32,000 bases of DNA from an uncultured Chloroflexia bacterium (GCA_963704755.1 OY969938.1:4740001-4772000), one strand, 5' to 3'. Shown: positions 3,266 to 32,000, counted from the first letter of the stretch. Notes: generated by a model not told the origin, from the sequence alone. Translations and numbers: made by a program.

Positions 3266-3326
3266 GCCGGCTTTTATTTTCTCTCCCCGTGCTTTAAGAG
3301 GAGAGTCGCTGCCAGAGGAAAAGACC

Positions 3327-4121
3327 ATGGCAAAAATCCTGATCATCGAAGACAATGAAACCAACCTTGAGCTGATGGTCTATCTCTTGAAGGCCTTTGG
3401 CCATGAACCCAGTGAAGCAATGACTGGTGAGGATGGGATCGAAGCGCTGAATCAGGAACTCCCTGACCTGATCCTATGCGATTTACAGTTGCCAGGTATG
3501 GATGGTTACGAAGTAGCCAATATCCTGAAAAACCGGCCATCTCTGGCGCAAATTCCCCTGGTTGCGGTGACTGCCTTTGCGATGGTTGGCGACCAGGAAA
3601 AGGTACTCAATGCCGGCTTCAATGGCTATATCGCTAAACCCATCGCGCCGGATTTGTTCGTTGGCCAGGTAGAAAAATTCTTGTTGTTCAAATCGATCCC
3701 ATTCAAGCCGCACACTTTTGACAACAACGTTGAAAGTACACCGGTACCCTCCAAACACAAATCCATTTTGCTGGTGGATGACATGGCAATCAACCTGGAG
3801 GTGCTGAAAAGTGTGCTCAATCTGTCTGGCTACGACGTTGTCCCGGCCCGTTCAGTCGAGCAGGCCCTGACCCTTGCCCACCAAACGCCCCCGGACCTGG
3901 TCTTGACTGACCTGATTATGCCCGGCCAGGATGGGTTCGACTTACTGCAAGCCGTAAAATCTGATCCAGGGTTAGCACATATCCCTGTGGTGGTCCATTC
4001 CGCTTCTTCACCGAGCCTGGTGGACCGGCAGCGGGCTATTAACCTGGGTGCATCCAATTTTATTATTCGCCCTATCGAGACTGACAAATTTCTGCTAGAG
4101 ATCGAAAAAAGCCTGGATTAG
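3327..4121 (+). CDS. Double receiver-domain response regulator (REC-REC, no output domain)
   Basis: 264 aa. REC1 has ILIIEDNETN...DLILCDLQLPGMDGYEV...AKP. REC2 has ILLVDDMAINL...DLVLTDLIMPGQDGFDL. A GAGGAAAAG Shine-Dalgarno lies upstream of the ATG. Confidence 0.9.
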   Translation: MAKILIIEDNETNLELMVYLLKAFGHEPSEAMTGEDGIEALNQELPDLILCDLQLPGMDGYEVANILKNRPSLAQIPLVAVTAFAMVGDQEKVLNAGFNGYIAKPIAPDLFVGQVEKFLLFKSIPFKPHTFDNNVESTPVPSKHKSILLVDDMAINLEVLKSVLNLSGYDVVPARSVEQALTLAHQTPPDLVLTDLIMPGQDGFDLLQAVKSDPGLAHIPVVVHSASSPSLVDRQRAINLGASNFIIRPIETDKFLLEIEKSLD

Positions 4122-4141
4122 GGATAAGGAAAAATCGAGCT

Positions 4142-7988: not shown

Positions 7989-8016
7989 TTCAGCCTCCCG
8001 ACTACGATTAGGATCA

Positions 8017-8090
8017 AATTATTTGTAACTTCTCAGGCTTATCCCAAATTCGGTTTTCTTACCCGATCGACTGAGCAATTACAATTATTT
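8017..8090. mobile_element. Internally deleted copy (58 bp, 8025-8082) of the nested-palindrome MITE-like family, flanked by a perfect 8-bp direct repeat AATTATTT
   Basis: Termini are GTAACTTCTCAGGC (8025-8038) and GACTGAGCAATTAC (8069-8082), 11/14 complementary. AATTATTT occurs at 8017-8024 and 8083-8090. The interior keeps CCCAAATTCGG..TTTTC, which resembles the right half of the full-length copies. Confidence 0.65.
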
Positions 8091-8124
8091 ATGTGCAAGC
8101 CCGGTGGGGATGAACCCTTTTGGC

Positions 8125-9072
8125 TTAATTCGTTTTCATGCAGGCGATGAACACGTCTTCCAGGGATGGGTCGATCAGCGCTTTTTCCTGGACGCGGATA
8201 CCGGCCTGCTTAAGCTCATGCAGGATGGGTGTTTGTAATTTGGTCACGTCCGCGGCGGTCACGTGCACCAGCGAACCGTAGAGTTCGACCTCCTGCACCG
8301 CCAGGCGGCCCTCGCGTTGGGCCAGGCGCAGGAGCTTGACAGTCTCAACCGGGTCGGAGGTGGCCAGCTCGAGTACCTGGCCTTGCATGACCTGGTCCTT
8401 GATCTGCTGGGGCGGGCCATAAGCGATCAGCTTACCGTGCTGGATAAAACCCAGGCGGTGACAATGCTCGGCTTCATCCATATAGTGGGTGGTCACGAAG
8501 ACGGTCACGCCGCCGGCAACCTGTTTGTACAGCAAGTTCCAGAAGGTGCGCCGGGAGAGCGGATCTACTCCGGCGGTAGGCTCGTCCAGGAAGAGGATTT
8601 CCGGCTGGTGCAAGATGGCCGCGCTGAGGGCCAGGCGTTGGCGCCAGCCGCCGGAGAGGTCCCTGGTCTTGTGGTGGCGGTAGTCGTCCAGCCCGGCCAG
8701 GGCCAGGGCTTCTTCGATCCGCACGGCCAGGTGTTCGCGGGACAGGCCATAGGCCGCGCCGTAGAAATTGAGGTTTTGCAGCACGGTCAGGTCGTTGTAC
8801 AAGCTGAAGCGCTGCGACATGTACCCCACGCGCGGGCGGATGCGAGCCGAATTCCCCTCCACTTGCAGGCCTAACACCTCAACCGAGCCTGAAGTGGGCT
8901 TCATCAACCCCAGCAGCATACGGATGGTGGTGGTTTTGCCTGAGCCGTTTGGGCCGAGAAAACCGAAGATTTCTCCACGGTGGACTTCGAACTCGACGTT
9001 ATCTACGGCCGTGAAGTCGCCAAAGCGGCGGGTCAGGTGATGGGTGGCAATGGCTATTTCCATGTTATCCAT
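8125..9072 (-). CDS. ABC transporter ATP-binding protein (ABC-2/YbhF-like)
   Basis: 315 aa. Walker A GPNGSGKTT, signature LSGGWRQRL, Walker B ILFLDEPTAGVD, H-loop TTHYMDEA. Confidence 0.9.
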   Translation of the reverse strand: MDNMEIAIATHHLTRRFGDFTAVDNVEFEVHRGEIFGFLGPNGSGKTTTIRMLLGLMKPTSGSVEVLGLQVEGNSARIRPRVGYMSQRFSLYNDLTVLQNLNFYGAAYGLSREHLAVRIEEALALAGLDDYRHHKTRDLSGGWRQRLALSAAILHQPEILFLDEPTAGVDPLSRRTFWNLLYKQVAGGVTVFVTTHYMDEAEHCHRLGFIQHGKLIAYGPPQQIKDQVMQGQVLELATSDPVETVKLLRLAQREGRLAVQEVELYGSLVHVTAADVTKLQTPILHELKQAGIRVQEKALIDPSLEDVFIACMKTN

Positions 9073-9090
9073 GATCTTCTCCCATCTCTT

Positions 9091-10215
9091 TCAATCCAGG
9101 GCCCGGCGGACGAAGCGCCAGGAGAATGCACCGATCACCAATCCCAGCCCGAGCAGGATCAGCAGGTTGGGCCAGAGCACGTCCAGGCCGGCGCCTTTGA
9201 GCAGGATCCCGCGCAAGATCACCAGCCAGTGGTGAGCCGGGATCAGGTTGGCGAACCATTGCAGCACCTTGGGCATACTCTCCACCGGGGCGGCATATCC
9301 GGTAAACATGAAATCGACCATGCCGACCAGCAGCACCAGCAGGAAAGCCTGTTGTTGTGAATGCGACAATACCGATATAACCATCCCTTTGGCCAGTTCG
9401 ACCAGCAGGTAACCGAGAGCCAAGATGAATAACAAGGGTAATGAACCGTGGACGGGCACCCCGAAGGCAAAGTGGATCATGGTCAGCATCAACAGAAAGT
9501 CGCTGAAGCCGATGATGGCCACCGGGATGGCTTTACCGATCATGATTTCGAGTGAGGAATAGGGCATAACCAGCAATTGTTCCAGCGTGCCTAACTCACG
9601 TTCACGCGAGAAGCCCAGGGCGGCGAACAGCAGCACGGTGAATTCCAGCATCAAGCCCATTTCAGCCGGGGCGGTGTAGAGGGCTTCACTGAGGGTCGGG
9701 TTGAACCAGACCTGTAGGCTGGGATCGAAACCGCTGAATTGGGTTGGGCTCACTCCCAGGCGCTGCAGGAAGATGCGCTGGTCGAGCGATTGGACCAGAC
9801 CCTCGATGGTGTTCTCGGCCGTGGTAGCAGGCGTGCTTTCGGCACCCGAGAGGATGAATAGAAGCACCGGCTTTCCGGTCGGGGAGGCCATTTGGCGGTC
9901 ATAATCGGGCGGGATGACCAGGGCAGCATTGATCTTGCCTTGCTCGAGCGCAGTCTGGATGGTGTTCATGTCCTCGACGTATTGGGGGGCCTGAAAGGTA
10001 CCCGTGTTTTGGACGGCGCTGATCAGCGAGCGGCTGTAAGCACCGCGGTCCTGGTCCCAGACCATGTAGGGCAGGTTGGTCACCGGGCGCGAGGTGGCCC
10101 AGCCGACCAGGAGCAGCTCACCGGCCCCGCCGATCAGCATGAAGGCCGGCATCCACCAATCGTTGCGCAGATGGATAAATTCTTTGATTACGATAGACCA
10201 GATCCTTCTGAACAT
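9091..10215 (-). CDS. ABC-2 type transporter permease (YbhR/YbhS-like)
   Basis: 374 aa. It has an N-terminal TM helix, a large extracytoplasmic loop and a C-terminal cluster of about five TM helices. It is tightly packed against the neighbouring permease and ATPase genes. Confidence 0.85.
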   Translation of the reverse strand: MFRRIWSIVIKEFIHLRNDWWMPAFMLIGGAGELLLVGWATSRPVTNLPYMVWDQDRGAYSRSLISAVQNTGTFQAPQYVEDMNTIQTALEQGKINAALVIPPDYDRQMASPTGKPVLLFILSGAESTPATTAENTIEGLVQSLDQRIFLQRLGVSPTQFSGFDPSLQVWFNPTLSEALYTAPAEMGLMLEFTVLLFAALGFSRERELGTLEQLLVMPYSSLEIMIGKAIPVAIIGFSDFLLMLTMIHFAFGVPVHGSLPLLFILALGYLLVELAKGMVISVLSHSQQQAFLLVLLVGMVDFMFTGYAAPVESMPKVLQWFANLIPAHHWLVILRGILLKGAGLDVLWPNLLILLGLGLVIGAFSWRFVRRALD

Positions 10216-10218
10216 GAG

Positions 10219-11355
10219 CTACCCCAATCTCTTGCGAAAGAATAAGGACGCCAAAGCGATGAACGCTACCCCTAACGCCACCAGCATGACCGCATATGGC
10301 CAGAGCACATCCAGGCCGGCGCCTTGCAGAAAGATCCCGCGGGTGATGATGGCGTAATGGGTGCCCGGCAGGGCCAGGGCTTCCATACGTACTTCTTCGG
10401 GCATGGAGGCCAGTGGGAAGAAGATGCCGGTCAGGAAAAAGCCGGGGAAGAAGATCACCAGGAAGGAAAGCGCCAGGGCGGCCGCCTGGGTGCGCATAAA
10501 CACACCCACGATCATGCCCATGCTCAATACCGAAAAGAGGAACAGGGCCGACAGGCCAAAAAACAGCAGGAAATTCCCGTTAAACGATATGCCGAACCAG
10601 GCAATGGCCAGGATGGGGATGAGGATCACGTTGAACAGCCCGACGGTGATATAAGGGAAGATTTTGCCCAGCATCAGTTCGGCGCGGGTGATGGGGGTCG
10701 CCAGCAGTTGCTCCAAAGTGCCGTGCTCGCGCTCGTGGGCCAGGGTAAGGGCCACCGAAAGGGCCGGAAAGCCCAGCACCATCGAGATCAGGCCGGGGAT
10801 CAAAGCGTTGCGTGCCTTGAGGTCCGGGTTGAAACGGGTCTGGATGCGCAAGTCGATGGGCTGGATGGTATCCACGGAAAGGCCCTGGACACTCAACTGG
10901 TTTTGGATGGTTTGGGTGGCGAAACTCTCGGCGCGCCGGGAGATGTGCTGCACGGCAAAATTACCGCTTTCGGGCTCGGTGCCATCGATGATGACCTGGA
11001 TTGGAACGCCCTGCGCGGCCTGCAACTGTTCGGCAAAACCCGGCCCGATGATCAGGGCCGCCTTGATGGTACCGTTCATCATCAGTGTGTTGATTTCATC
11101 CATATTGGTGGCGACCGATTGCAGCTCCAGGTCTTGCCCGGCGGTGATCTGCTGGATGAAGGCCTGCGAGGCCTGGCTCTGGTCGTAATCCAGGACAGCG
11201 ATGGGCACGTCTTTGATATCCACGGTCAGGGCGTAGGCCATTAGCAGCAGTACCAGGGTAGGTGTAAACAGGACCAGGATGAGGGTGCTGCGGTCGCGGA
11301 AGATGTGGTTGAATTCTTTGCGGGTCACTGCCCAGATGTGACGAAATGACATCAT
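10219..11355 (-). CDS. ABC-2 type transporter permease (YbhS/YbhR-like)
   Basis: 378 aa with the same topology as the 9091-10215 paralogue. Its start overlaps the stop of the upstream ATPase by 4 nt (ATGA), which indicates translational coupling. Confidence 0.85.
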   Translation of the reverse strand: MMSFRHIWAVTRKEFNHIFRDRSTLILVLFTPTLVLLLMAYALTVDIKDVPIAVLDYDQSQASQAFIQQITAGQDLELQSVATNMDEINTLMMNGTIKAALIIGPGFAEQLQAAQGVPIQVIIDGTEPESGNFAVQHISRRAESFATQTIQNQLSVQGLSVDTIQPIDLRIQTRFNPDLKARNALIPGLISMVLGFPALSVALTLAHEREHGTLEQLLATPITRAELMLGKIFPYITVGLFNVILIPILAIAWFGISFNGNFLLFFGLSALFLFSVLSMGMIVGVFMRTQAAALALSFLVIFFPGFFLTGIFFPLASMPEEVRMEALALPGTHYAIITRGIFLQGAGLDVLWPYAVMLVALGVAFIALASLFFRKRLG

Positions 11356-12287
11356 TCCTCCTGGTTGCGAATCAAAGAGATAAAGGCTTCTTCCATGCGA
11401 GCCGGGGCGATGCGAATTTTCGTATAGGCAATACGGTTGGCTTTCATAAATTTTTGGACTTCCGCCAGCCGGCGCTGGCCCGAATCGACCAGGAGATGGA
11501 CCGATTCGCCATAGGTCTGGACTTCTGTGATCCAGGGAAGCCCGGCGACCAGGTCCGGTATCTTCTGCCAGTCAGCGGTCTGGACCTCGATAATCTCACC
11601 TTCCAGGTGGGCGCGGATGCTGCCCGGTGTGTCGCATTCGACCAGCCGGCCGGCGTACATGAGACCCACCCGCGAGCAGCGATCGGCTTCGTCCATGTAG
11701 GGTGTGCTGACCAGGATGGTGGCGCCGCCCAGGTGCAGGTCGGTCAGGATGTTCCAGAACTCGCGCCGCGAGATCGGGTCCACCCCGGTGGTGGGCTCGT
11801 CCAACAACAGGATCTCGGGCTGGTGGACCAGGGTACAGGCCAGGGCCAGCTTTTTTTGCATCCCACCGGAGAGGTACATGGCGCGCCGCTGGCGGAACTC
11901 GTTCAGCCCGGCGAAGGCGAGCAGTTTTTCGGTGCGCTCACCCAGCACGTGGGCCGGTACGTCGAATAACTCGGCGAAGAAGCGCAGGTTCTCGATCACC
12001 GAAAGCTCGGCGTACAGGCTAAACTGCTGGGCCATGTAGCCAACGTGGGGCTTGATCGCCTCGGCCTGGCCGGCCAGGTCGAAGCCCAGCACACTGGCGC
12101 TGCCGGAAGTGATGCCCAGCAGCCCGGCCAGCAGGCGCAGGGTGGTGGTCTTGCCAGCGCCGTCCGGCCCGACCAGCCCAAACAACTCACCCGGTTGGAT
12201 GGCCAGGTCCAGTTCGGCTACGGCGTGGGTCTTTTTGAAATCCCGCGACAGGGCTGTGGTTTGGATGACAGGGGCTGCGCCTGGCAT
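11352..12287 (-). CDS. ABC transporter ATP-binding protein (ABC-2/YbhF-like)
   Basis: 311 aa. Walker A GPDGAGKTT, signature LSGGMQKKL, Walker B ILLLDEPTTGVD, H-loop STPYMDEA. Confidence 0.9.
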   Translation of the reverse strand: MPGAAPVIQTTALSRDFKKTHAVAELDLAIQPGELFGLVGPDGAGKTTTLRLLAGLLGITSGSASVLGFDLAGQAEAIKPHVGYMAQQFSLYAELSVIENLRFFAELFDVPAHVLGERTEKLLAFAGLNEFRQRRAMYLSGGMQKKLALACTLVHQPEILLLDEPTTGVDPISRREFWNILTDLHLGGATILVSTPYMDEADRCSRVGLMYAGRLVECDTPGSIRAHLEGEIIEVQTADWQKIPDLVAGLPWITEVQTYGESVHLLVDSGQRRLAEVQKFMKANRIAYTKIRIAPARMEEAFISLIRNQEE

Positions 12288-12290
12288 GGC

Positions 12291-12560
12291 TTATTTCCGC
12301 GCCAGGCGGATGATCCACAGCACCAGCAGGGCGCCCATGACCGGCTCCAGGGCCACCCCCAGGTATTTAAGCGATGTGCTGAAGCCCATGGCCGGGATAA
12401 CGTACCAATCCAACAGCCCAACCGCAAGCGCAGTGATAATGGCGGCGATGTAATCTCCGCGAACACCAACCGGGCGGTTGTTCTTCCAGATGACTCCACC
12501 CAACCAGCCCACAATCAGGCCAACGACGATCATCAGGACGATCAGGATAACGATTTGCAT
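12291..12560 (-). CDS. GlsB/YeaQ/YmgE-family (transglycosylase-associated) small membrane protein
   Basis: 89 aa with three hydrophobic helices and the family pattern IVGLIVGWLGG...GDYIAAIITALAVGLL. A GAGGAGG Shine-Dalgarno lies 5 nt upstream of the ATG, on the minus strand. Confidence 0.8.
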   Translation of the reverse strand: MQIVILIVLMIVVGLIVGWLGGVIWKNNRPVGVRGDYIAAIITALAVGLLDWYVIPAMGFSTSLKYLGVALEPVMGALLVLWIIRLARK

Positions 12561-12582
12561 TTTAACCTCCTCTACGAATTTC

Positions 12583-12605
12583 TATAACTGACCGGTCAGT
12601 CATTA
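12583..12605. promoter_or_regulatory. Putative TetR operator copy 2 (TATAACTGACCGGTCAGTCATTA), between tetR and the glsB-ABC genes
   Basis: This 23-bp sequence is identical to 13243-13265. Its core is the perfect 14-bp palindrome ACTGACCGGTCAGT. It lies 22 nt upstream of the glsB-like start codon. Confidence 0.6.
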
Positions 12606-12621
12606 AAGGGCGTAAAAAAAT

Positions 12622-13221
12622 TTAGCGAGCCAACATTCCTTCCAGTAATAGCTCGATCCCGGTGTGAATGTGCCGGCCAGGCTCTACCAGGGTCTTATCG
12701 TATACCCATAACAAGACGGTGCCTTCGAAGATCGCGCCCATGGCAATGGCCGTTTCTTGGGGGTCAACCGGGCGGAACTCGCCGGTCTGGATACCATGTT
12801 GGACGATCGGGATAACCACTTCCATGTAGCGTTTCATGTATAGTTTGAGGGCAACCTGGACATACTTGTTGCGGAAGGCCAGGGCCAGGAATTCGTACGC
12901 AATCGGCATAATACGCATCATATCCAGGAAACCACGCGTGGCCATGTCGGTATATTGCCAGATGGCGTCAATCGCCGATATTTTGGCCAGATCCAGCTCT
13001 TCCATGCGTTTGAACTCGATATTGAAGATGCGATCGAGAATGGCCACGATCAGGTCGTCTTTACTTTTGAAATAGAGATAAAGGGTACCTTTACTTAACC
13101 CGGTTTTCCCCGCGATATCATCCATGCGCGCCTGGTAAAAACCTTTTTCGGTAAAGACCTGTTCGGCGGCATTGATGATCTGGTTTTTGCGTTCGTTGCT
13201 GACGTCTGGGCGAGGGGACAT
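12622..13221 (-). CDS. TetR/AcrR-family transcriptional regulator
   Basis: Taken from the internal ATG at 13221, giving 200 aa that begin MSPRPDVSNERKNQIINAAEQVFTEKGFYQARMDDIAGKTGLSKGTLYLYFKSKDDL (the TetR HTH). The longer ORF-track version (to 13461) would read through the operator and promoter and adds non-TetR sequence. Confidence 0.85.
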   Translation of the reverse strand: MSPRPDVSNERKNQIINAAEQVFTEKGFYQARMDDIAGKTGLSKGTLYLYFKSKDDLIVAILDRIFNIEFKRMEELDLAKISAIDAIWQYTDMATRGFLDMMRIMPIAYEFLALAFRNKYVQVALKLYMKRYMEVVIPIVQHGIQTGEFRPVDPQETAIAMGAIFEGTVLLWVYDKTLVEPGRHIHTGIELLLEGMLAR

Positions 13222-13242
13222 AGTGTTGGATAATCCTTTGTG

Positions 13243-13265
13243 TATAACTGACCGGTCAGTCATTA
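13243..13265. promoter_or_regulatory. Putative TetR operator copy 1 (TATAACTGACCGGTCAGTCATTA), in the tetR promoter/leader
   Basis: Exact 23-bp repeat of 12583-12605 with the 14-bp perfect palindrome core. It lies 22 nt upstream of the proposed tetR ATG and abuts the predicted -10 box. Confidence 0.6.
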
Positions 13266-13293
13266 TAATAGATCGTTTTTCGCCATTCGTCAA
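13265..13293 (-). promoter_or_regulatory. Sigma-70-like promoter for tetR (TTGACG-N17-TATTAT read on the minus strand)
   Basis: The reverse complement of 13288-13293 is TTGACG and the reverse complement of 13265-13270 is TATTAT, with a 17-nt spacer. The operator starts at the -10 edge. Confidence 0.45.
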
Positions 13294-13481
13294 GAGGAAA
13301 ATGTAATAAAGATACCTCATATTCGGGATCTTTACCTTTTGGGTTGAGCGGTACGGATACTTTTTATTTTCACCCCACGGGTATAAAATTACCCTGGCTG
13401 GTCTGAACAAGAGCGGAGCCGCCTGGCCTGCAATATCCGGGGCTTGCACAGCGAGCCCCACCTGCTCGGGTTAAGTGGTCC

Positions 13482-17722: not shown

Positions 17723-17772
17723 CAATAATATATATTTGCGATAGCATCGCTATCGCAAATATATATTATTGG
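17722..17772. terminator. AT-rich 51-bp perfect palindrome between convergent zwf and the histidine kinase gene; candidate bidirectional terminator
   Basis: CCAATAATATATATTTGCGATAGC-ATC-GCTATCGCAAATATATATTATTGG, with 24-bp arms. The right arm contains the last two codons and the stop (17766-17768) of the minus-strand kinase gene. Confidence 0.5.
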
Positions 17773-19286
17773 CTGGGCAGCCAGATGGTGAAAATTGCGC
17801 CTCTCCCCTCGGCATTGGCGGCCGTTACACAGCCGCCGTAAGCCTGAGCAATCGAATACACGATCGCCAGGCCCAAACCGGTCCCAGAAGGAACGTTTTC
17901 GGCATCGCTGTCGTCGCGGGTGCGAGCCTGGTCGATGCGGTAGAAGCGCTCGAAGATATGGTCTACGTGTTCGGGGGGTATCCCTGGGCCGTTATCGCTC
18001 ACTTTCACCCAGGCGAATTTACCATTGCTGCGTTCCTGGACGCCGGTTTCGACGTTCACCCAGGCATCTTCGCCTTTGGCGTATTTGATCGCATTTTCGA
18101 CCAGGTTATTGATCATCTGGGTGAGGTAACTCCAATTGGCTTTGACGACCGCCTCGCCTAATTCTCCGGTGTGCAAATTGACCCCGTTCTGGGCAGCCAG
18201 GTAATTCAGGCGCTCCAACGAATCCAGGACCAGTTCGCTCAAATCGATTTCTTCATTGCGCAGGTTGGCCTGGCCGGAATCCATGCGGGCCAGAGTCAGC
18301 AGCTCGTTGACCAGGCGGCCCATCCACTCGTTCTCAGATTGGATCACCTGCAAGGCTTGCTCGTACTCGGCCGGGCTGCGTGGGTGTTCCAGCGCCCGGT
18401 TGGCTTCCAGCTCGATGATCGACAAAGGCGTGCGCAGTTCGTGGCTGGCATCGGCGGTAAACTGACGCTGGCGGACGAAGGCGGCTTCCAGGCGCTCCAG
18501 CATACGGTCAAAGGTAAGAGCCAGTTCGCCTAGCTCATCTTTGCGTTTGATATTCAGCCGGCGGCTTAAATCTTTCTCGCTGATATCTTCGGCCGTGTGG
18601 GTAATCAGATCGACCGGCTTCATAGCCCGGTCGGCCAGCCAGTACCCGCCGCCGAAGGCGGCCAGCAAAATAATCAAATCGATGATCCCCAGCACAACCG
18701 CCAGGGCATAGATCTGGCGGTTCGGGTCGATCGGCGCCCCCAAGATCAACAATCCACGCATCTGGTGTTCAACGGCCAGGGGAGTTACGTTGAAATAATA
18801 TTCATCGTTGCTGAGGTTTTGATCCGAATTGCCGGGATCGGTTCCGTGGTAAGCCAAGGGGTGATTGCCCCCGGAAGGCGATTGTTGCCAGGCCTTGACC
18901 ACGTTGTACAAATCCAGGTCGCTGATGTTGCCAATCTTTTGGGCGATGGTACCATCGGAGCCGACAATCGCCATGACCTGATCGCTGCCGATCAAGGGTT
19001 GGCCGTTGGTCGAAGGCACGGTCACCGCCTGGTTGGGATCGTCCGGATCGAAGGTCATGCGCAGCAGGCCTTCGTAGAACGTGGATAACTGGTTGGCCTG
19101 GGAGGAGAGCCGGGCAGCGGCCTCCGTCCGCATCAAGTGATACTGTCGATAGAAAACGGATACGCTGAAAGCGACCAGAATAACAGCCAATATCCCAACA
19201 AAATAAAGAGTCAGGCGGAAGCGGAAGCTGTGGAAGAAGCGGATGAAATTGGCCTTGGAGAAAAAAGACCGCACCCTTTTTCCCAT
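17766..19286 (-). CDS. Sensor histidine kinase (two TM segments, extracytoplasmic domain, HAMP, HisKA, HATPase_c)
   Basis: 506 aa. H-box ASHELRTPLSII, N-box NLVENAIKY, G1 DNGPGIP, G2 GTGLGLAIV. Its start codon directly abuts the stop of the upstream response regulator (TAGATG). Confidence 0.9.
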   Translation of the reverse strand: MGKRVRSFFSKANFIRFFHSFRFRLTLYFVGILAVILVAFSVSVFYRQYHLMRTEAAARLSSQANQLSTFYEGLLRMTFDPDDPNQAVTVPSTNGQPLIGSDQVMAIVGSDGTIAQKIGNISDLDLYNVVKAWQQSPSGGNHPLAYHGTDPGNSDQNLSNDEYYFNVTPLAVEHQMRGLLILGAPIDPNRQIYALAVVLGIIDLIILLAAFGGGYWLADRAMKPVDLITHTAEDISEKDLSRRLNIKRKDELGELALTFDRMLERLEAAFVRQRQFTADASHELRTPLSIIELEANRALEHPRSPAEYEQALQVIQSENEWMGRLVNELLTLARMDSGQANLRNEEIDLSELVLDSLERLNYLAAQNGVNLHTGELGEAVVKANWSYLTQMINNLVENAIKYAKGEDAWVNVETGVQERSNGKFAWVKVSDNGPGIPPEHVDHIFERFYRIDQARTRDDSDAENVPSGTGLGLAIVYSIAQAYGGCVTAANAEGRGAIFTIWLPSQ

Positions 19287-19976
19287 CTAATTTGCCTCAT
19301 TTTTTACCGGGCGAACCATACGATAACCCAGTCCACGGACGGTCTCCAGCAATTTTTGTTCAAATGGCTCGTCGATTTTGCGACGCAGCCGGCGGATGTA
19401 CACGTCGATCACGTTCGATCCGGAGACAAAATCGTAATTCCAGATATGGGTTTCGATCATCTCACGCGTGACCAGGCGGTCGGTATTGCGCATCAAATAT
19501 TCCAGCAAGGCAAATTCGCGGGTCGTCAATTCGATCATGATGTCTGCGCGTTTTACCTGGTGCGAAGCCGGGTCGAGCACCAGGTCGGCGATTTGCAGTT
19601 TCACCGATTTATCGGAAGCTTCCCGGCGCAGAAGAGCGCGTAAACGGGCACGCAGTTCGTTCATGGCGAAAGGCTTGACCAGGTAATCGTCAGCGCCACT
19701 GTCCAGGCCTTGCACGCGATCTTCTATCGCGTCCCGGGCGGTGAGCATCAGAATGGGGGTACTGACGTGCTGCCCACGCAGTTCCTTGCTGACCGCATAG
19801 CCATCCTTTTTGGGGAGCATCACGTCCAGGATGATCACATCGTAGGGGGTAACCAGGGCGTAGTCCAACGCCTCCTCACCATCGAATGTCGAATCGACGG
19901 CGTAACCATCTTCTTCCAGGGCGGTCCGCAACGAGACGTTTAGCCTGCGGTTGTCTTCAACTAACAAGATGCGCAT
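19287..19976 (-). CDS. OmpR/PhoB-family response regulator
   Basis: 229 aa. The receiver reads MRILLVEDN...DVIILDVMLPKKDG...KPF. The winged-helix output reads LTTREFALLEYLMRN...VIDVYIRRLRRKI...TVRGLGY. Confidence 0.9.
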   Translation of the reverse strand: MRILLVEDNRRLNVSLRTALEEDGYAVDSTFDGEEALDYALVTPYDVIILDVMLPKKDGYAVSKELRGQHVSTPILMLTARDAIEDRVQGLDSGADDYLVKPFAMNELRARLRALLRREASDKSVKLQIADLVLDPASHQVKRADIMIELTTREFALLEYLMRNTDRLVTREMIETHIWNYDFVSGSNVIDVYIRRLRRKIDEPFEQKLLETVRGLGYRMVRPVKNEAN

Positions 19977-22874: not shown

Positions 22875-23516
22875 TTAAAGCCCTACGGCAGGCAGGTACA
22901 CTCCATCAAACTGCCCGCCGAGCATCCCGGCTTCATAGGAACGCCGGTCCACCCGTGAAAGCTGGGAGACCGTCTGCGGATCGATCAGGGGCAGGGATTT
23001 CCGTTTACAGAACCTGGTGATGATTTTATCGATGCCGGCCGGTTGTGTGGGCCAGTCGAAGCGGTCGAATTGGCTCAGGTCCAGGGGGATGGTGTATCTG
23101 CGTAGGGTCTTTTCGCCGTTGATATTGTAGAACCCTTCGAAATAGGACATGGCCAACTCGCGCAGCGAGCGGTAAACTGGCTCACGGAAACGCAGCCCGG
23201 CAAAATTCGACTTGGCAATTGCGCCGTAGCAGCGATTGACCTTGTAGATGGCCAGGGTATGGTCTTCATCCAGTGCAGGATCGGGGACGAGGTCGACCAG
23301 GTGAGGGCTAAAACCGGACTGGCTCAGTGCCAGAGCGGCAAAAATAGCCCCATCCTGGCAATAACACTGGCGATCCTTCAGAATTTGTAGGGGGGTGCGG
23401 TTCAGTTCTTCGCCTACGTAAGGGAGGCTGTCGAGGAACTGCTGAATGCGATAAGGCGTATCCAGCCCGGTAAAGAGCCGGCGGTCTTCATCTGATAATG
23501 CTTCAAGAAATCCCAT
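22875..23516 (-). CDS. Transglutaminase-like / papain-fold superfamily protein (function uncertain)
   Basis: Taken from the ATG at 23516 (214 aa, MGFLEALSDEDRR...). It has a candidate Cys...His pair (RQCYCQDGAIFAALAL ... DEDHTLAIYK) in transglutaminase-core spacing. The ORF-track N-terminal extension (to 23690) merely translates the intergenic repeats. Confidence 0.55.
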   Translation of the reverse strand: MGFLEALSDEDRRLFTGLDTPYRIQQFLDSLPYVGEELNRTPLQILKDRQCYCQDGAIFAALALSQSGFSPHLVDLVPDPALDEDHTLAIYKVNRCYGAIAKSNFAGLRFREPVYRSLRELAMSYFEGFYNINGEKTLRRYTIPLDLSQFDRFDWPTQPAGIDKIITRFCKRKSLPLIDPQTVSQLSRVDRRSYEAGMLGGQFDGVYLPAVGL

Positions 23517-23583
23517 GGCGGTCCTCCGTTTTGAGTATATCACGGCTTCTGTGGGTGGAGGAATGCACCAGGAAGAAGATAAA

Positions 23584-23655
23584 AACCACGGAGGCACGGA
23601 GTGCACGGAGAAGAAGGAAGCGTTCAACCACGGAGGCACGGAGCGCACGGAGAAA
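23584..23655. repeat. Two direct copies of a 30-bp unit (AACCACGGAGGCACGGAG[T/C]GCACGGAGAA) with a 42-bp period
   Basis: Copies at 23584-23613 and 23626-23655 match at 29/30 positions. A degenerate inverted copy lies at 23727-23754 (TTCTCTGTGAACTCTGTGTTCTATAGTT), and CTGTGGGTT recurs at about 23793. Confidence 0.7.
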
Positions 23656-24241
23656 AGAAAGAAAAAAAAACGAGAAGAAAAATATGCCATCTATTTTTTA
23701 TAGCAGTTACTTTTCTTCTTTTTCTTTTCTCTGTGAACTCTGTGTTCTATAGTTTTCTTTCTTGACAATTTTCACAGTTGTTCTGTGGGTTTTCCTCTTG
23801 AGAGCCGCTCGTATGTCGCCGTTTCATTCATTTCACCTTAACCCGCAACTATCAATATAGACCGGTGTTACTACGTTCAGGAATTTCCCTGGTTCGAATT
23901 ATAGGGGGATTCCAGCTAACGAAGAATACTGGTAACTTTGGCGGCCTGCGCGGGAAAGCGCTTTTTATGGCGGCCGAACCGTTACAAACGAATTCGGAAA
24001 TTTCGACAAAAATGCTGAAGCTGCGTCGCCAGTCCTGGGTCACTGGCGCTGATAGCGCAGATTCATCTGCCGGGTGAGCGAGCAATTGTTTTTTACCGAA
24101 AAACAAATCTTCCCTCTGCCTGGAATTGCCTAAAGACCAATGTAAATTTTCCGTGTTTGCGGGGAGCGGAAAAATGGTCAAATGCAGCATTTTTCTAATG
24201 AAAGAAGAAAAACATCCCTTGAATATCAGAGGAGTTTGAAT

Positions 24242-25645
24242 ATGTACGATCCAAGAGCTGTCGCAATCGTCGGGATAGGGTCGATTTTACCTGAATCACA
24301 AACCACCGCAGATTTTTGGCAAAAAATCAAAGAGGGGCGTTATTTGATCAGTGAGGTGCCGGCCGATCGCTGGCGACCGGACCTGTATTACGATCCTGAT
24401 CCGACCGCGCCGGATAAGACCTATAGCAAAATTGGCGCCTGGGTGCGTTCATATGATTTCGATCCGTTGAAGTGGGGCATCCCCATCCCACCCAGTGTGC
24501 AATTGGTGATGGATATCGGCCAGAAGTGGGGTATCGCTGCTGCCCGTCAGGCATTGCTGGATTTCGATTATCTCCACAAGGACCTGGACTACAGCCGGGT
24601 GGCGGTGATCCTGGGCAATTCGATGGCCGGTGAAAACCACTATATGACCAGTCTGCGTATCCACCTCCCGGAATTTTTGGATACGCTCTCCGGGTTGGAT
24701 TCATTCCAGGCCCTGCCGGAGGATATGCAGCGGACTCTATTGCAAGGGATGCAGCAAAAGTTCCGCCAGCGAATTCACAATATCACTGAAGATACCATGC
24801 CGGGCGAGCTCGGGAACGTCATCGCCGGGCGGATTGCCAATGTTTTCAATTTCGGCGGACCGAACTTCGTCACCGACGCCGCCTGTGCATCTTCACTGGC
24901 TGCTTTGCAGGCCGCGGTGGATGGGCTGGCTAATCACCAATTTGACGCGGTCTTGACCGGTGGCGTGGACGGTAATATGGGTGTGGAAGGGTACGTCAAG
25001 TTCAGCAAGATTGGTGCGCTCAGCCCGGATGGCTCGCGCCCGTTTGATGAAGGCGCCAACGGCTTTGTAATGGGTGAGGGAGCGGTGCTGTTTTTGCTCA
25101 AGCGTCTGGCCGACGCCGAAAGGGATGGCGACCGGATTTATGCGGTTGTCCGTGGAATTGGCGCCAGCAGTGACGGCAAAGGAAAAGGGATCACCGCCCC
25201 CAACCCGGTGGGCCAACTCCGCTCGATCGAACGTGCCTGGAAAAACGCCGGGGTTGACCCTGCCAGCGTTGGGTTGATCGAGGCGCATGGGACTTCGACC
25301 CGTGTAGGGGATGTGGTCGAAGTGAACAGCATGACCGAATATTTTAGCAAATTCGACATCCCGGTCCATAAAGTGGCACTGGGTTCGGTCAAATCGAACA
25401 TTGGCCACTTGAAAAGTGCTGCCGGGGCGGCCGGCCTATTGAAGGCCACCCTCAGCCTGTACGAGAAAATACTGCCTCCCTCGATTAATTTCGACAAGCC
25501 CAACCCAAAAATCGATTTCGCGAACATCCCATTTTACGTCAACCGCGAGTTACGTCCCTGGGAGCGCAAGGAAGGCGATATCCGCCGGGCGGGAGTGAGT
25601 TCGTTTGGCTTCGGCGGGACAAATTTCCACGTGGTTCTGGAAGAA
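24242..25645 (+). other. Domain: ketosynthase 1 (PfaA/PKS-type)
   Basis: Active-site [11 protein letters not shown] (Cys codon 24884-24886), [26 protein letters not shown], and the C-terminal [14 protein letters not shown]. Confidence 0.9.
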
Positions 25646-28600
25646 TGGGTGCCGGGTCTGTTGACCAACGAAAATAAGGTCTATCCGGCTGCACAGGCCA
25701 GCGCAGCGGCAGCGCAACCGGCGCAAATCGCAGCTATGGAGCTCGCTAACGCGGTCCCGGAACCTTACCGCGGGATTTTGTACGTGTCAGCCGGGACACC
25801 GGCTGAACTCCGCACGCTGCTGGCGGTTAAAGTAGAAGAGGCTCGTCGCGGGCAGGTGCCTCCGCGCCGGCTTCCCTCAAATGAAGCCTTGAGCCGGCCA
25901 GAACGCCTGGCGATTGATTTCGAGACGGCCGAAGAGCTGGTTACCCGTGGGGAAAAGGCCTTGAAAGTCCTGGGTTCCGAGGCTCCCAATGCCTGGCAGG
26001 CGTTGACTGCCCAGGGGGTGTACCGCGGCAGCGGCCCGGCCGGAAAAGTGGCCTTCATGTTCCCCGGCCAGGGCTCTCAATACGTCAACATGCTCAAAGA
26101 TCTGTGCGAAGTCGAGCCGGTGGTCGAGGAGACTTTTGCCGAGGCCGACCGGATTATGAAACCGATCCTCGGCCGGACGTTGACCAGCTATATTTATGTC
26201 AACGGCGATGAGGAATCGCTCAAGCAGGCCGAAGATGCCCTGCGGGACACAGCCATCACCCAGCCGGCCATGTTGACCGCCAATGCCGCCATCCTGCGCC
26301 TGATGCAGAAGTTTGGCTACGTCCCGGATATGGTCATCGGCCACAGCCTGGGCGAATATGCCGCCCTGGTCGCGGCCGGAGTTTTGACTTTCGCCGAGGC
26401 ACTCGAGATTGTCAGTGCCCGCGGGCAGGAAATGAAGAAAGTCTCCATGGCCGATAACGGCGGCATGGTGGCCGTTTCCGCGCCAATCGCGGAAGTGGAA
26501 CGGATCCTTCAAGGGATCAGCGAATATGTGGTAATCGCCAACATCAATAGCCCGCTCCAATCGGTGGTCGGTGGCAGCACCCCCGGCATCAATGCCGCTT
26601 TGGAGGCCTTCAATGAGGCCGGCTATCAGGCGACTCGCATCCCGGTTTCGCATGCTTTCCATACCAAAATTGTGGCCCCGGCCAGCGGGCCATTGAAGCA
26701 GGTCATTGCCCGGATGAGCCTGAATTCTCCCCGCATGCCGGTGGTAGCTAACGTCACCGGAGAGATTTATCCGCAGACCCGCGAAGGGATCCTGGACATT
26801 CTTGGCCAGCAAGTAGCCTCTCCGGTGCAATTCATCAAGGGAATGAATACGCTCTACGACAATGGGGTCCGGATATTTGCCGAGATCGGGCCGAAACGGG
26901 TGCTCAATTCGTTGGCCAACGACAATCTCAAAGGCAAAACCGATGTGACTCTGCTCTCCACTAATCACCCCCGTAAAGGAGCGGTGGTCAGCTTTAATGA
27001 AGCCTTGTGCGGGATGCTGGCGGCCGGCGTGTTGCCGGCAGGCGCAGCAAGTTCAGCCGCCGCCGAACAATCTGTTCGGGAAGCAGTACAACTCCAATCT
27101 CCGGCAGCGACCGTGGCGCCTGGGATTGCACCCCAAAACAATGGGCACGATCATTCCAATCCTGGCCCGGTCATCGTTTTTCCGGGCGCTGGGCGCTTGC
27201 CCCTGACCGGCTCGGTCGTCGTCAGCGGGGCCGGGTTGGGGCTGCCGGGTAAAAAAGGCCATGTATTCGATGACGCGAATATCGAAAGCATCCTGCGCGG
27301 TGAAATCCGCATCGAGGGATTGCCAATCGGCTTACGGGAAAAGATGGTTGAACGGAACGCGGTGCGGGTGGAAAAGAGCGAGGCCGGCGCTCAGATGGTC
27401 AACATCAATGACCTGGATATGACTATAAAATTAAAGTGGCCAGCGCGGCCAGTTCGACCTGGCCGAAGAGTTCGGCGTGCCCGCAGAGCGGGTAGAGGCT
27501 ACCGACATCAGCACGCAATTGGCAATCGCCGCCGGGATCGAAGCCCTGCGCGATGCGGGCATCCCCCTGGTGATGCGTTACCGGCTGACCAGCAAGGGCA
27601 CTTACCTGCCCGACCGCTGGAAACTGCCGGAAGCCCTGGCCGACGAGACCGGGGTAATCTTCGCCAGTGCCTTCCCGGGCGTGGACCGCATGGCCGAGGA
27701 GGCTGCCCGGTTCGCCGATTATCGCCAGGCGGGGAAATTGTTGGAAGAAGTTCAAAGCATCCTCGCTTTGGTGCCACCCGACCAAACCGGCTTACGCAAA
27801 ACCCTGGAGGAGCGCGCCCGAGACCTGGAAACTCAATTGAAGGAGCTGGATTATACCTTCGACCGGCGCTACATCTTCCGCATACTGGCGATGGGGCACT
27901 CCCAGTTTGCCGAATATATTGGCGCACGCGGGCCAAATACCTATGTCAACGCGGCTTGCGCCACCACTACCCACGCTATGGGCATCGCCGAGGACTGGAT
28001 CCGCATGGGGCGGGCACGCCGGGTGGTCATCGTAGCCGGTGACGACGTAACCAGCGGCAGCTCGGCCCCCTGGATTGGGACCGGCCTGCTGGCTTCCGGG
28101 GCGACTACCACCGAAGGGGAACTGCGTATGGCAGCGCTGCCCTTCGACCGCCGCCGTAACGGTATGATCATGGGCATGGGCGCGGCCGCCCTGGTGGTCG
28201 AGTCCGAAGATGCCGTCCGCGAGCGCGGGATGCGCGGAATCTGCGAAGTGTTGGCGACCCAGATTGCCAACAGCGCTTTCCACGGGACCCGCCTGGACGT
28301 GGCCCACGTCAGTGACGTGATGGACCGGCTGGTCAGCCAGGCTGAAGAACGGTTTGGCATCGACCGGCGCGATTTCGGCGACCGGACCATGTTTATGTCG
28401 CATGAAACGTACACCCCGGCACGGGGCGGTTCGGCCTCGGCGGAGATCAATGCCTTACGGCATACCTTTGGCGACCAGGCCAACAAAATCATTGTGGCCA
28501 ATACCAAGGGCTATACCGGTCACACTATGGGGGTTGGCATCGAAGACGTGGTGGCCGTGAAAGCGCTGGAAAACGGGGTTGTGCCACCGATTGCCAACTA

Positions 28601-31600
28601 CGATGATAATTTCGAGCCCGATCCTGAATTGGGTGATTTGAATCTTTCGCGCGGCGGCGCCGTGCCGCTGCGCTATGCCCTGCGCCTGGGCGCCGGTTTC
28701 GGCTCGCAGATCGCCATGTCGCTGCTGCGGACCATTCCAGGCGGTAAAGAACGCATCAACCGGCCGGTTTATAACCAATGGCTGGCCGACGTGGCCGGCT
28801 ATGACCAGGCCGACCTGGAAGTGGAAAAACGGACCCTGCGTGTCCATCACGCCGGCCCACCGGCGAAAACACCGGCTCAATCCCAATGGAAGTTTGGCCA
28901 GGGACCCACCCTTTGGGCAGACCGGCCAGAAGACAGTGCGCCACTCGGTGCGGCGGTTGCCCGGCCAGAGGAACATATCACCCAACCTCAACCTGTGGTG
29001 GAAGTTCAGGACCAAATGGAGCCGTTGGCTCTGGCCTCAGCGCCGATGCCGGCCGGCATCGATCGCCAGGAAGTCAAATCGTTCGTGCTGGATCAGGTCA
29101 GCCAGAAGACCGGATACCCGATCGAGATGTTGGATTTGGACCTGGACCTGGAGGCCGACCTGGGCGTGGACACGGTCAAGCAGGCCGAATTATTCGCTGC
29201 TATCCGCGAACACTACGACATCCCCCGGCGGGAAGACTTGCGCCTGGTGGACTACAACACCCTCAATAAAGTGGTCCAGTTTATGATCGATTCGGCCGGG
29301 CAGACTCTGCCGGCAGCACAGCCGGTCGATGCCGGCCAGGCCAATCCCCAACCGCAGCCGGCAGTAAGCGCTGCAGCAGTTAAAACTGCTCCGGTTGCGA
29401 CCGGAGCGGTGCTAGCCGGTACACCGGCGGCCGGGCGTGAGGAGGTGCAGGCCTTCGTACTGGCCCAGGTCAGTGAGAAGACCGGCTACCCGATCGAAAT
29501 GCTCGACCCGGACCTGGACCTGGAAGCCGACCTGGGTATCGACACGGTCAAGCAGGCCGAATTGTTCGCGGCGATCCGCGAGAAATATGACATTCCCCGG
29601 CGGGAGGACCTGCGCCTGGTGGAATACAACACTTTGAATAAAGTCGTCCAGTATATGCTGGATATGCAGAACCAGCCTGAAGCTCCGATCGAAGTGCAGC
29701 CCTTATTGGCCGTTGAGAGCAAACCCGTCGCTGAACCGGTTGAAGCGGCTGTTCCGGCAGTAGAAAGCCAACAAACCGTAGGAAGTATCCCGCGCGAGGA
29801 AATCCAGGCTTATGTGCTGGCTCAGATCAGTGAAAAGACCGGCTACCCGGTCGAAATGCTCGACCCGGACCTGGATCTGGAGGCTGACCTGGGCATCGAC
29901 ACGGTCAAGCAAGCCGAGTTGTTTGCCGCGGTGCGCACCAATTACGATATTCCCCGCCGGGAGGACTTGCGCCTGGTCGATTACAACACATTGGCCAAGG
30001 TGACCGACTTCGTAGTCGATTCACTGGAAGAAAAAGCCGCACTAAAGACTCTTGAAGCCGCCGAGCAGGTCGTGGTGAATCTGCCTGAAATAAGTGCAGT
30101 TCAGCCACAAGCTGCAGCGGAGGCTGCCCAGACTGAAGCGGAGTCCCAGACCGTGCAGATCCGCCGCAGAGTGCCGGTGCCGGTACTGCGACCCAGGTTG
30201 GACCTGTGTGTGCCGACCGGGGTGGAATTGAACGAGGGCGACCGGGTGCTCATTTATGCCCGGCGGAGCAAGGTCGCCGATTCACTGGCCCGCCGGCTGC
30301 GCGGCCGTAAGGCACAGGCAATTTTGCTCCATCCCGAAACCCTGGCGGCCGGACTGGATAAGGTCCGCACGCTTCAGGCGGAGGGGCCGATCAAAGGGAT
30401 CTATTATCTGGCCGGACTGGATGAAGAAACACCTATCGATGATTCGACGGCTGAAGCCTGGACCGGCGCTTTCGAGGAACGGGTGCTCCCGCTGTATCAC
30501 CTGCTGAGAGAGGTGCAGGGCGACCCATTCCTGGTGTGCGGTACCCGCCTGGGCGGCCTTTTGGGATATGGCCCGCAGAGGATCCAATCCCCCCTGGGTG
30601 GCGCGATTTCCGGCTTCACCAAGGCACTCAAACTCGAACGGCTGGAATCGCTGATCAAGGTAGTCGATTTCGAGGCAGAAACGCCGGATGGGCAAATCGC
30701 CGGGCGGCTGCTGGACGAGACTCTGCGAGACCCGGCGATCTATGAAGTTGGTTACGAGGGCGATAAGCGCTTCACCGTCGTGCTGGTGGACCGCGAGGCA
30801 GCGGAAGGCAGCTTTGAACTGGGCGAGAAACCGGTATTCCTGGTCAGCGGCGGTTCGGGCGGAATCACCGTCCCAATCGTGGAAGACCTGGCCCGTAAAA
30901 CCGGTGGCATTTTCTACCTGCTCGGGCGCAGCCAAATTCAAGAGAAAGTTGATCCCGATCTGCAGCGCGTGCTGGCTGACCGGGAGAGCGTCAAACGATC
31001 ATTGATCGAGCGGGCGGCTACGGCCGGCCAAAAATTGACCCCCTCCCAGATCGACCGGGAACTGTTGGCCCTGGAACGTGCGGCTTCGGCCCTGGACGCC
31101 GTCCGGCGGGTCGAGGCAGCCGGTGGGCAGGCGACTTACCTGTCCTGCGATGTCAGCGATGCGCAGTCGGCCGAACGGGCAGTGGCGCAAATTGTGGCGA
31201 AACACGGGCGAGTGGACGTGCTGCTGCACGCTGCCGGGATCGATCGCAGCCGCAAGCTGGAGAGCAAACCGGAGGATGAATTCCGCATGGTCACGGCCAT
31301 CAAAATGGCCGGGTTGATCCATTTATATAAAGCGATCCAGTCCCAGGGCAGCTTGCCAAAGGCGGTGGTCATGTTTGGCTCGGTGGCCGGGCGGTTTGGC
31401 AACACCGGCCAGACCGATTACGCGGCGGCCAACAGCTTCCTTGCGATGATGGGTTTTGCCTTGCAGCAGGCCCATCCCCAGATGAAAACCGTGGTCATCG
31501 ACTGGAGCGCCTGGGCGGGTGTGGGCATGGCTTCACGCGGCTACATTCCACGCCTGATGGCGCGAGCCGGCGTGGACCTGATCGCAGCGGAGGAAGCCGC

Positions 31601-32000
31601 ACCCCTGGTGTACCAGGAACTGACCAATGGAGAGATGAGCGCCGAGGTCGTCCTGGCCGGATCGCTGGGTGTGCTGGAAGGCGATTTGCGCGCAGATGGC
31701 GGCCTGGATCTGGCGGCAGCCAACAAAGCCCTGGTCGATGGCGAGCCGATCCACGTGATGCTCAGCCGGGCGGCTGGCCTCACTCTGCACGATGGTATTT
31801 TGCTGGAAGCCGAGCTGGACCCGAATAGCGAGCCGTTCCTCAAGGACCACGCCATGAACGGCATCCCGCTGCTGCCGGGGGTAATGGGTATCGAAGGTTT
31901 TTCAGTGGCTGCCCGGCACGTTTCTTCTGTGTTGGGTTCACCTGAAGCCGGATTTAGCGTGACCGGCCTGCAGGATGTCCAATTCCTGGCGCCATTCAAG
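24242..32000 (+). CDS. PfaA-like type I FAS/PKS megasynthase, KS-AT-KS-(carrier)x3-KR-DH...; the frame is interrupted at about 27433 (+1 shift) and the 3' end lies beyond the window
   Basis: The ATG at 24242 has a GAGGAG Shine-Dalgarno 7 nt upstream. The frame of 24242 is coding to about 27433. From 27435 the next frame is open to nt 32000 (hand translated; it is not in the ORF track because it has no stop). Every domain motif is listed in the domain features below. Confidence 0.9.
26042..26917 (+). other. Domain: acyltransferase (malonyl-CoA:ACP type)
   Basis: [13 protein letters not shown], nucleophile GHSLGEYAA (Ser codon 26345-26347), and VSHAFHT. Confidence 0.9.
27209..28730 (+). other. 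Domain: ketosynthase 2 (FabF-like, complete Cys-His-His triad), split by the frame break at about 27433
   Basis: The N-terminus [12 protein letters not shown] lies in the upstream frame. The downstream frame gives [12 protein letters not shown] (Cys codon 27957-27959), [26 protein letters not shown] and [12 protein letters not shown]. About 250 aa separate the N-terminus from the Cys, which is longer than in FabF. Confidence 0.8.
29058..29294 (+). other. Domain: carrier (ACP-like) 1, with Thr at the canonical Ser position
   Basis: [54 protein letters not shown]. The Thr codon ACG is at 29172-29174. Confidence 0.8.
29436..29666 (+). other. Domain: carrier (ACP-like) 2, with Thr at the canonical Ser position
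   Basis: [54 protein letters not shown]. The Thr codon ACG is at 29544-29546. Confidence 0.8.
29787..30023 (+). other. Domain: carrier (ACP-like) 3, with Thr at the canonical Ser position
   Basis: [54 protein letters not shown]. The Thr codon ACG is at 29901-29903. Confidence 0.8.
30828..31533 (+). other. Domain: ketoreductase (catalytic subdomain; a structural subdomain probably begins at about 30150)
   Basis: Rossmann motif [21 protein letters not shown], and catalytic [12 protein letters not shown] (YAAAN). Confidence 0.85.
31749..32000 (+). other. Domain: PKS-type dehydratase, N-terminal hotdog half (truncated by the window end)
   Basis: The HxxxGxxxxP motif reads [22 protein letters not shown], with the His codon at 31848-31850. 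Confidence 0.7.

Follow-up and report, generated by a model that had tools for sequence, protein, structure and literature searches.

The DNA analysed here is a stretch of 32,000 nucleotides (nt) from an uncultured Chloroflexia bacterium (GCA_963704755.1 OY969938.1:4740001-4772000; hereafter the window). From 24242 to its end, on the plus strand, it encodes most of a polypeptide of ~2,800 amino acids (aa), which we assign, with a probability of about 80%, to the iterative type I fatty-acid synthase (FAS)/polyketide synthase (PKS)-like secondary lipid synthases of Type R in the Anaerolineae (Chloroflexota). Known secondary lipids number only a handful (PMC13291983). The types derive from a survey in which pfa-like gene clusters were classed as Types A-T (Shulse and Allen, 2011, PLoS One 6:e20146; PMC3098273). 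Type R has one pfaA homologue with the order ketosynthase (KS)-MAT-chain-length factor (CLF)-acyl carrier protein (ACP)(3-6)-ketoreductase (KR), followed by a phosphopantetheinyl transferase (PPTase) gene; it was found in Koribacter and Solibacter (Acidobacteria), Elusimicrobium and Roseiflexus, and its product is uncharacterised (PMC3098273). In Koribacter, an acetyl-CoA carboxylase (ACC) gene lies between the synthase and the PPTase (PMC3098273). The window has the Type R order, KS1-acyltransferase (AT)-KS2-ACP3-KR-dehydratase (DH), and its relatives have one to six ACPs. This match, together with the placement of the PPTase gene in relatives, means that the architecture was catalogued in 2011 and is not new: the window locus is a frame-broken new member of a known, uncharacterised family.

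An earlier reading of this DNA, made from the sequence alone (the sequence-only reading), had proposed a PfaA/HglE-like megasynthase with the order KS-AT-KS-ACPx3-KR-DH; the assignment is borne out, and the order is real by Pfam annotation of both reading frames. That reading also knew of no characterised synthase with this order. The literature agrees, in that our search found neither a characterised synthase of the order KS-AT-KS-ACP-KR-DH nor any later characterisation of Type R, but the order itself is neither novel nor rare.

The gene is spread over two overlapping frames (Table 1). Frame 2 has no stop between 24146 and 28039, and in its open reading frame (ORF, 24182-28042) Pfam places ketoacyl-synt N and C domains at aa 25-490, with Acyl_transf_1 following at aa 625-934. 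Frame 3 stays open from 27435 up to 32000, where the window ends; it contains weak ketoacyl-synt N/C matches, three PP-binding domains, KR, and a PKS_DH_N domain clipped by the window end. The ORF list does not include this 4.5-kb frame, as had been pointed out; the cause is simply that the frame runs off the window. The AT is 38% identical to E. coli FabD and carries the HAFH motif, which in PKS acyltransferases is malonyl-specific. No repeat was found in the ACP array by Tandem Repeats Finder, which indicates divergence of the three ACPs in their nucleotide sequence. The window protein is truncated; the homologue at locus L007 has a complete PS-DH domain and scores 1040 bits against TIGR02813 (PfaA), above the cut-off of 1010.

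Table 1. Features of the synthase locus in window coordinates.
Feature	Position	Strand	Details
Type R synthase gene, KS1-AT-KS2-ACP3-KR-DH	24242..32000	+	Frame 2 to 27436, frame 3 from 27438; other possible ATG further upstream at 24182; 3' end ~650 nt past window end
KS1, type I PKS/PfaA-type ketosynthase	24257..25651	+	Pfam E 4e-57 and 1e-36; DAACASS (Cys) 24875-95; EAHGTST 25280-300; NIGHLK 25397-414
AT, malonyl type	26054..26983	+	Pfam Acyl_transf_1 E 8e-42; GQGSQ 26066-80; GHSLGE 26339-56; HAFH 26651-62
KS2, FabF-like ketosynthase	27212..28727	+	Cys motif 27948-71; His motif 28398-418; Lys/His motif 28503-23
Frame disruption, N-terminal part of KS2	27434..27437	+	One surplus base (AAGT)
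Two-helix hairpin in KS2 before active-site Cys	27681..27848	+	AF2 model residues 174-229; FabF alignment gaps
Carrier domain 1	29067..29300	+	Putative attachment-site Thr, codon 29172
Carrier domain 2	29439..29672	+	Putative attachment-site Thr, codon 29544
Carrier domain 3	29796..30029	+	Putative attachment-site Thr, codon 29901
KR	30837..31517	+	Pfam KR E 3e-32; GGSGGIT 30849-69; YAAAN present
DH, PKS-type, N-terminal part	31752..32000	+	Pfam PKS_DH_N E 2e-8; HxxxGxxxxP 31848-77; clipped by window end
Divergent ORF upstream of synthase	22875..23690	-	No Pfam match; likely true start near 23516-23522

The domain between the AT and the carriers, KS2, is a true FabF-like thiolase-fold domain. 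Its bounds, 27212-28727, are close to the 27209-28730 first proposed. The AlphaFold (AF2) model, built from a 50-sequence alignment, has a pLDDT of 91 and a pTM of 0.91, and FabF is its top Foldseek match in the PDB, superposed over the whole fold (TM 0.86, E 1e-28). Discrete FabF is also the top PDB match by sequence, with E 1e-25 for the single sequence (phmmer) and 5e-32 for the family profile, and the PfaC KS-CLF structure (6riw) is not among the 60 best matches of that profile, which extend down to E 1e-15. Sequence identity is low: FabF structures aligned by Foldseek are ~20-24% identical to KS2, and E. coli FabF is 28% identical to it in a MAFFT alignment. The motifs quoted in the sequence-only reading are all present: NAACATTT, SHETYTP and TKGYTGH (quoted there from KGYTGH on) align to FabF Cys163/His303/Lys335/His340. 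The Cys, His, Lys and His occur without exception in the cross-phylum relatives (121/121), and the catalytic set is kept in all 54 full-length Anaerolineae proteins (the Cys pattern matched in 52; the other two read NAACS). KS1 and KS2 each retain the equivalents of FabF C164, H304, K336, H341, T306 and T308, as well as the gatekeeper Phe, F401. The features of KAS II (Cys-His-His, Lys and gatekeeper Phe) are thus all found in KS2, and the earlier claim of a FabF-like KS with a complete Cys-His-His is upheld by the FabF alignment, the AF2 model, Foldseek and conservation.

KS1 and KS2 are only 25% identical. The best PDB matches of KS1 are KS domains of trans-AT PKS, and it matches 6riw with E 5e-71; judged by these similarities, KS1 is type I PKS/PfaC-like and of a lineage other than that of KS2.

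Classical CLFs lack the active-site Cys, and an intact Cys-His-His-Lys set therefore argues that KS2 is a working ketosynthase, not a chain-length factor; from its residues, KS2 is likely to be catalytically active. The opposite view would make KS2 a non-condensing partner of KS1 in a KS-CLF-type pseudo-dimer that shapes the acyl pocket. It has in its favour that Shulse and Allen labelled the domain CLF, that PfaC and HglC use KS-CLF pairs, and that the large insertions of KS2 could reshape the tunnel. Such a role is nevertheless improbable, given the invariance of the Cys, both His and the Lys in both sets of relatives, the retention of the gatekeeper Phe and of Thr-x-Thr, and a profile closer to discrete FabF than to 6riw. 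A KS-like domain without active-site Cys does occur among pfa-like clusters: PfaB of Type B has an additional KS domain of this kind (Shulse and Allen, 2011; PMC3098273). In KS2 the defining loss of Cys is not seen, and CLF identity was rejected; as far as conserved residues tell, the CLF label is wrong for the second KS of the Type R family.

KS2 has three insertions relative to FabF. The largest, before the Cys, is a hairpin of ~56-60 aa with helices at model residues 174-203 and 209-229; its helical nature had been recognised, but the earlier length of ~85 aa was an overestimate. The other two are smaller and N-terminal. Family-wide, KS2 reads S-H-E-T-[YF]-T-P where FabF and the KS domains of PKS have H-G-T-[GS]-T-P, and the Glu adjoining the catalytic His is invariant (121/121). 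A lone KS2 fragment of 601 aa, flagged as partial, occurs in Nostocoides australiense (L083 10001-11804, HG764815.1) among unrelated genes and with a transposase nearby; it is probably the remnant of a degraded synthase.

The need for a frame correction was correctly anticipated by the sequence-only reading, and the site lies within the first part of KS2. The window reads ATA AAA TTA AAGT GGC CAG, with four bases in place of one codon, where relatives read ..T[IV]KL[G/A]GQRGQF.. in one unbroken frame. The frame-2 product is protein-like up to the break and, beyond 27436, is an out-of-frame sequence rich in Arg, Pro and Gly. About 55 of the 80 related Anaerolineae loci have a single ORF of 2,670-3,040 aa; the Bellilinea caldifistulae homologue has 2,851 aa. 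The overlap of two long open frames over 27435-28039 might suggest two genes (KS-AT and KS2-ACP-KR-DH) or programmed +1 frameshifting, but either is hardly credible and both were excluded. The junction lies inside the KS2 fold, with the N-terminal strands (GSVVVSGAG) in frame 2 and the remainder in frame 3, and is therefore not a gene boundary; relatives are continuous at exactly that position, the frame-2 tail is not protein-like, and no slippery motif is seen when the site is read directly from the sequence.

The surplus base is either an assembly error or a recent inactivating mutation, and we lean towards the error. Were the base real, the window gene would be a pseudogene, with translation stopping at 28042 and yielding KS1-AT plus junk. 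The break falls within the KS2 fold, where no restart would retain the first strands of the domain, and ~20 other genes of the window appear intact, so that the assembly does not look error-ridden; this makes a pseudogene possible, if doubtful. An old pseudogene would, however, be unlikely to keep frame 3 open for 4.5 kb with all downstream catalytic motifs intact. The 4.87-Mb source contig suggests a long-read assembly, a kind in which A-runs typically carry single-base errors. Similar breaks among relatives are few and come from long-read metagenome-assembled genomes (MAGs; loci L017, L046, L052, L064, L071 and L079). Exact-pattern scans of metagenome contigs found no second copy of the frame-shift site.

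The carrier domains share the motif DLG[VI]DTVKQAELF in the window and have no Ser at the start of helix II, the canonical position in PP-binding carriers. In pairwise alignments, their Thr falls exactly on the modified Ser of PigH and of the S. coelicolor and mitochondrial ACPs. This is a property of the family: Thr occupies the site in 222 of the 225 motif matches in Anaerolineae loci and in 47/47 carrier-domain motifs of cross-phylum matches, and the carriers of family representatives (n=335) divide into 325 with Thr, nine with Ser and one with Gln. Thr is likewise found in 569 unique carrier sequences of the family, which have no conserved Ser elsewhere in the domain. Members of the Ser type lie dispersed among relatives of the Thr type, and one protein (P0248) has tandem carriers with Ser, Thr and Ser. 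Ser and Thr thus look interchangeable at this site, an argument for Thr as the attachment residue, and we infer from these alignments that the carriers would hold the phosphopantetheine arm on Thr. The literature search found no report of Thr phosphopantetheinylation or of the DTVKQAE motif.

Placement of the carriers is variable. The layouts seen in Anaerolineae are KS1-ACP-AT-KS2-ACP2, KS1-AT-KS2-ACP3, KS1-ACP2-AT-KS2-ACP and KS1-AT-ACP-KS2-ACP2; the commonest, KS1-ACP-AT-KS2-ACP-ACP, differs from that of the window. Carriers may lie between KS1 and the KS-AT linker, in the AT-KS2 gap or after KS2, with a total of ~2-5 (L066, L074, L031, L025, L026, L055 and others).

The family is large. 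One search of a 90%-clustered database gave >1,057 protein matches, and 580 clusters at 50% identity (E<=1e-30) span many phyla; matches of the KS2 family include Chloroflexales and Acidobacteria. Among GTDB species representatives, 231 matches were confirmed in 298 candidate stretches and 80 distinct loci were kept; the scan, a narrow one, used six exact peptide patterns, and all 80 loci are from Anaerolineae or related Chloroflexota. GTDB has no representative that corresponds to the window genome; the best relative there is 78% identical. One member with five Ser-type carriers (P0178, 3234 aa, MCY3414055.1) is annotated as from a Candidatus Heimdallarchaeota MAG; an archaeon could have acquired it by horizontal transfer, or binning could have brought in a contaminant.

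Two partner genes accompany the synthase in the Anaerolineae. A PPTase gene lies directly 3' of the synthase in every Anaerolineae locus that extends past the gene (~66; tblastn counts 67 loci, with L001 and L082 among them). A convergent gene for a PfaD-type enoyl reductase (ER) is found in 57 Anaerolineae loci and scores 680 bits against TIGR02814. Beyond these three genes, nothing nearby is conserved in Anaerolineae. Both partners are tied to the synthase by fusions: P0254 (4019 aa) has a PfaD/NMO-like ER fused N-terminally, giving the order ER-KS-AT-KS-ACP6-KR-DH, and P0155 (3910 aa) has a PPTase fused C-terminally, in addition to an N-terminal region of ~740 aa without assignment. The PPTase is highly divergent, with a best PDB E-value of 0.03 and an NCBIfam HetI match far under the cut-off, and that of L007 has the hShxH (LSISH) and xGxP (HGYP) motifs. 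The same two motifs were reported for Types M-T.

Other phyla show different surroundings. The order is synthase-ACC-PPTase in L082 and L085, where the ACC is multidomain; in L084 the PPTase directly follows the synthase and carboxyltransferase genes lie upstream. No PfaD gene was found within the +/-10 kb flanks of these three loci. Before the synthase, all three (L082 790-6492, L084 3428-7416, L085 1217-6783) have an FeS/CCG oxidoreductase and an acyl-CoA dehydrogenase of ~560 aa, and in L082 and L085 electron-transfer flavoprotein (ETF) alpha/beta genes lie between the two. This set may be an alternative module for enoyl reduction or desaturation.

PfaB/C/D-like subunits had been suggested to lie downstream. 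A PfaD-type ER, and a PPTase, are indeed found in relatives, but no PfaB or PfaC: neither these nor an extra KS nor FabA/FabZ-like genes were detected in the window or, at the 84 loci fetched, within +/-10 kb of the synthase. Searches of all loci by tblastn with E. coli FabH/D/G/F/AcpP/PlsX and FabA/FabZ returned the synthase itself or no match. The synthase has no conserved neighbour that encodes a thioesterase or an acyltransferase able to pass the chain on to phospholipid synthesis, and no release domain was found within it.

A working cycle can be proposed from these parts. The AT would load malonyl units on the carriers, and both KS1 and KS2, each with an intact Cys-His-His-Lys set, would condense. 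The KR, the DH and an ER acting in trans would then fully reduce the intermediates to a saturated or mono-functionalised long acyl chain and not to a polyunsaturated fatty acid (PUFA); the downstream partners, known from relatives, would be the dedicated divergent PPTase and the PfaD-type trans enoyl reductase. A saturated or mono-functionalised chain is expected, since the parts cover a fully reducing cycle but include nothing that would install cis double bonds. KS1 and KS2 most likely share the condensations in the manner of KS_A and KS_C of PUFA synthases, each acting on its own range of chain lengths, or one in priming and the other in elongation; the condensing domains of PUFA synthases reportedly handle different chain lengths (work of Hayashi and Dairi). 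A PUFA product was rejected, no FabA-like DH, PfaB or PfaC being found in the flanks described above. An Ole-type olefin synthase was also rejected, as no loading, sulfotransferase or thioesterase domain is present.

A broader proposal is that these bacteria use the Type R system as their main fatty-acid synthase and not as an accessory route to secondary lipids; it would then be a type I FAS of bacteria, assembled from Pfa-type parts. All activities of a full cycle are present or even fused, as in P0254, a large ACC is clustered with the synthase in other phyla, and all loci kept from the scan of species representatives come from Anaerolineae or related Chloroflexota; Shulse and Allen voiced this idea for Types M and S (PMC3098273). 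The search for fab genes covered the +/-10 kb flanks and found none. Against the proposal, a conserved thioesterase or acyltransferase for transfer to phospholipid synthesis does not adjoin the gene. We consider this role unlikely. The combined proposal of a natural O-phosphopantetheinyl-Thr made by a dedicated divergent PPTase, of two active KS in one iterative FAS-like polypeptide, and perhaps of the main FAS of the Anaerolineae is put forward tentatively, at a little under even odds.

Several points weigh against the assignment of the window to a functional synthase of this kind. The window ends before the PPTase and ER genes, which its genome is presumed to have as its relatives do, and the surplus base, if real, would make this copy non-functional. 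Invariant residues do not prove that KS2 catalyses condensation, and HETYTP in place of HGTGT is unusual. Outside the Anaerolineae, the synthase has no flanking PfaD gene and has acyl-CoA dehydrogenase, ETF and FeS oxidoreductase genes upstream, so the reduction step may differ by lineage. For this biochemically uncharacterised family, what is said here of the product and its chain length, of the release step and of how the KS domains share the work is prediction.

Among other genes of the window, the divergent ORF upstream of the synthase (Table 1) is 57% identical to the L007 protein, and a homologue is kept at the same place in 18 loci of the Bellilinea group. A scan for promoters and terminators upstream of the synthase was uninformative. 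A minus-strand group at 6642-13461 (an HlyD-like protein, two ABC ATPases, two ABC-2 permeases and a TetR regulator) and two-component systems at 1595-6637 and 17766-19976 have no evident link to the synthase.

The domain order alone carries little weight, being known since 2011 and present in hundreds of lineages. The family is, however, among the most widespread megasynthases of unassigned product, in Chloroflexota, Acidobacteriota, Actinomycetota, Myxococcota and Gemmatimonadota, phyla abundant in soil, sediment and wastewater. Its experimental appeal lies in two intact KS domains in one iterative enzyme and in a near-universal change from Ser to Thr in the carriers beside a private PPTase; the system is compact, and its three genes (synthase, PPTase and ER) lend themselves to expression together. 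Should Thr prove to be the attachment residue, the textbook Ser rule for carrier proteins would need a footnote; automated annotation that requires Ser would mis-score Type R carriers. Taken alone, the window locus is of moderate interest; what would justify experiments is the Thr found in carriers throughout the family, together with two presumably active KS domains.

The closest known system is Type R as described in 2011, with which the window and its relatives share a single pfaA-like gene with KS, MAT, a second KS-like domain, tandem ACPs and KR; the relatives also have the PPTase gene directly 3', in some lineages with an ACC gene in between, and occur in Chloroflexi and Acidobacteria. 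The differences are that the second domain, there called CLF, has a full catalytic set here and family-wide, that Anaerolineae clusters add a PfaD-type ER gene, and that ACPs may precede the AT or KS2. The DH and the Thr carriers are not mentioned in that description. With PfaA (TIGR02813), Type R shares the backbone of KS-MAT followed by tandem ACP-KR-DH and, in Anaerolineae, the PfaD-type ER partner; PfaA carriers also have the motif context EKTGYP...EADLG[IV]D seen in Type R carriers. Type R differs in the FabF-like KS added between the AT and the ACPs and in having no PfaB, PfaC (KS-CLF-DH/I2) or FabA-like DH nearby. Its carriers have Thr, whereas the canonical carriers of PfaA have an active Ser (PMC5067506).

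The KS-CLF didomain of PfaC and HglC (6riw) also places two thiolase-fold domains in one synthase system. In Type R, by contrast, the two KS domains are split by the AT and are both catalytically complete, and KS2 is nearer to discrete FabF than to PfaC. FabF is the best match of KS2 in structure and sequence, with the fold, the Cys-His-His, the Lys and the gatekeeper Phe in common; KS2 differs in its position within a megasynthase, in its ~56-aa hairpin among three insertions and in reading HETYTP for HGTGTP. HglE (Type F) resembles Type R as an iterative PfaA-like synthase with tandem ACPs, and makes non-PUFA long chains. HglE has no internal second KS and needs HglC (KS-CLF-AT) and HglD, which are absent here.

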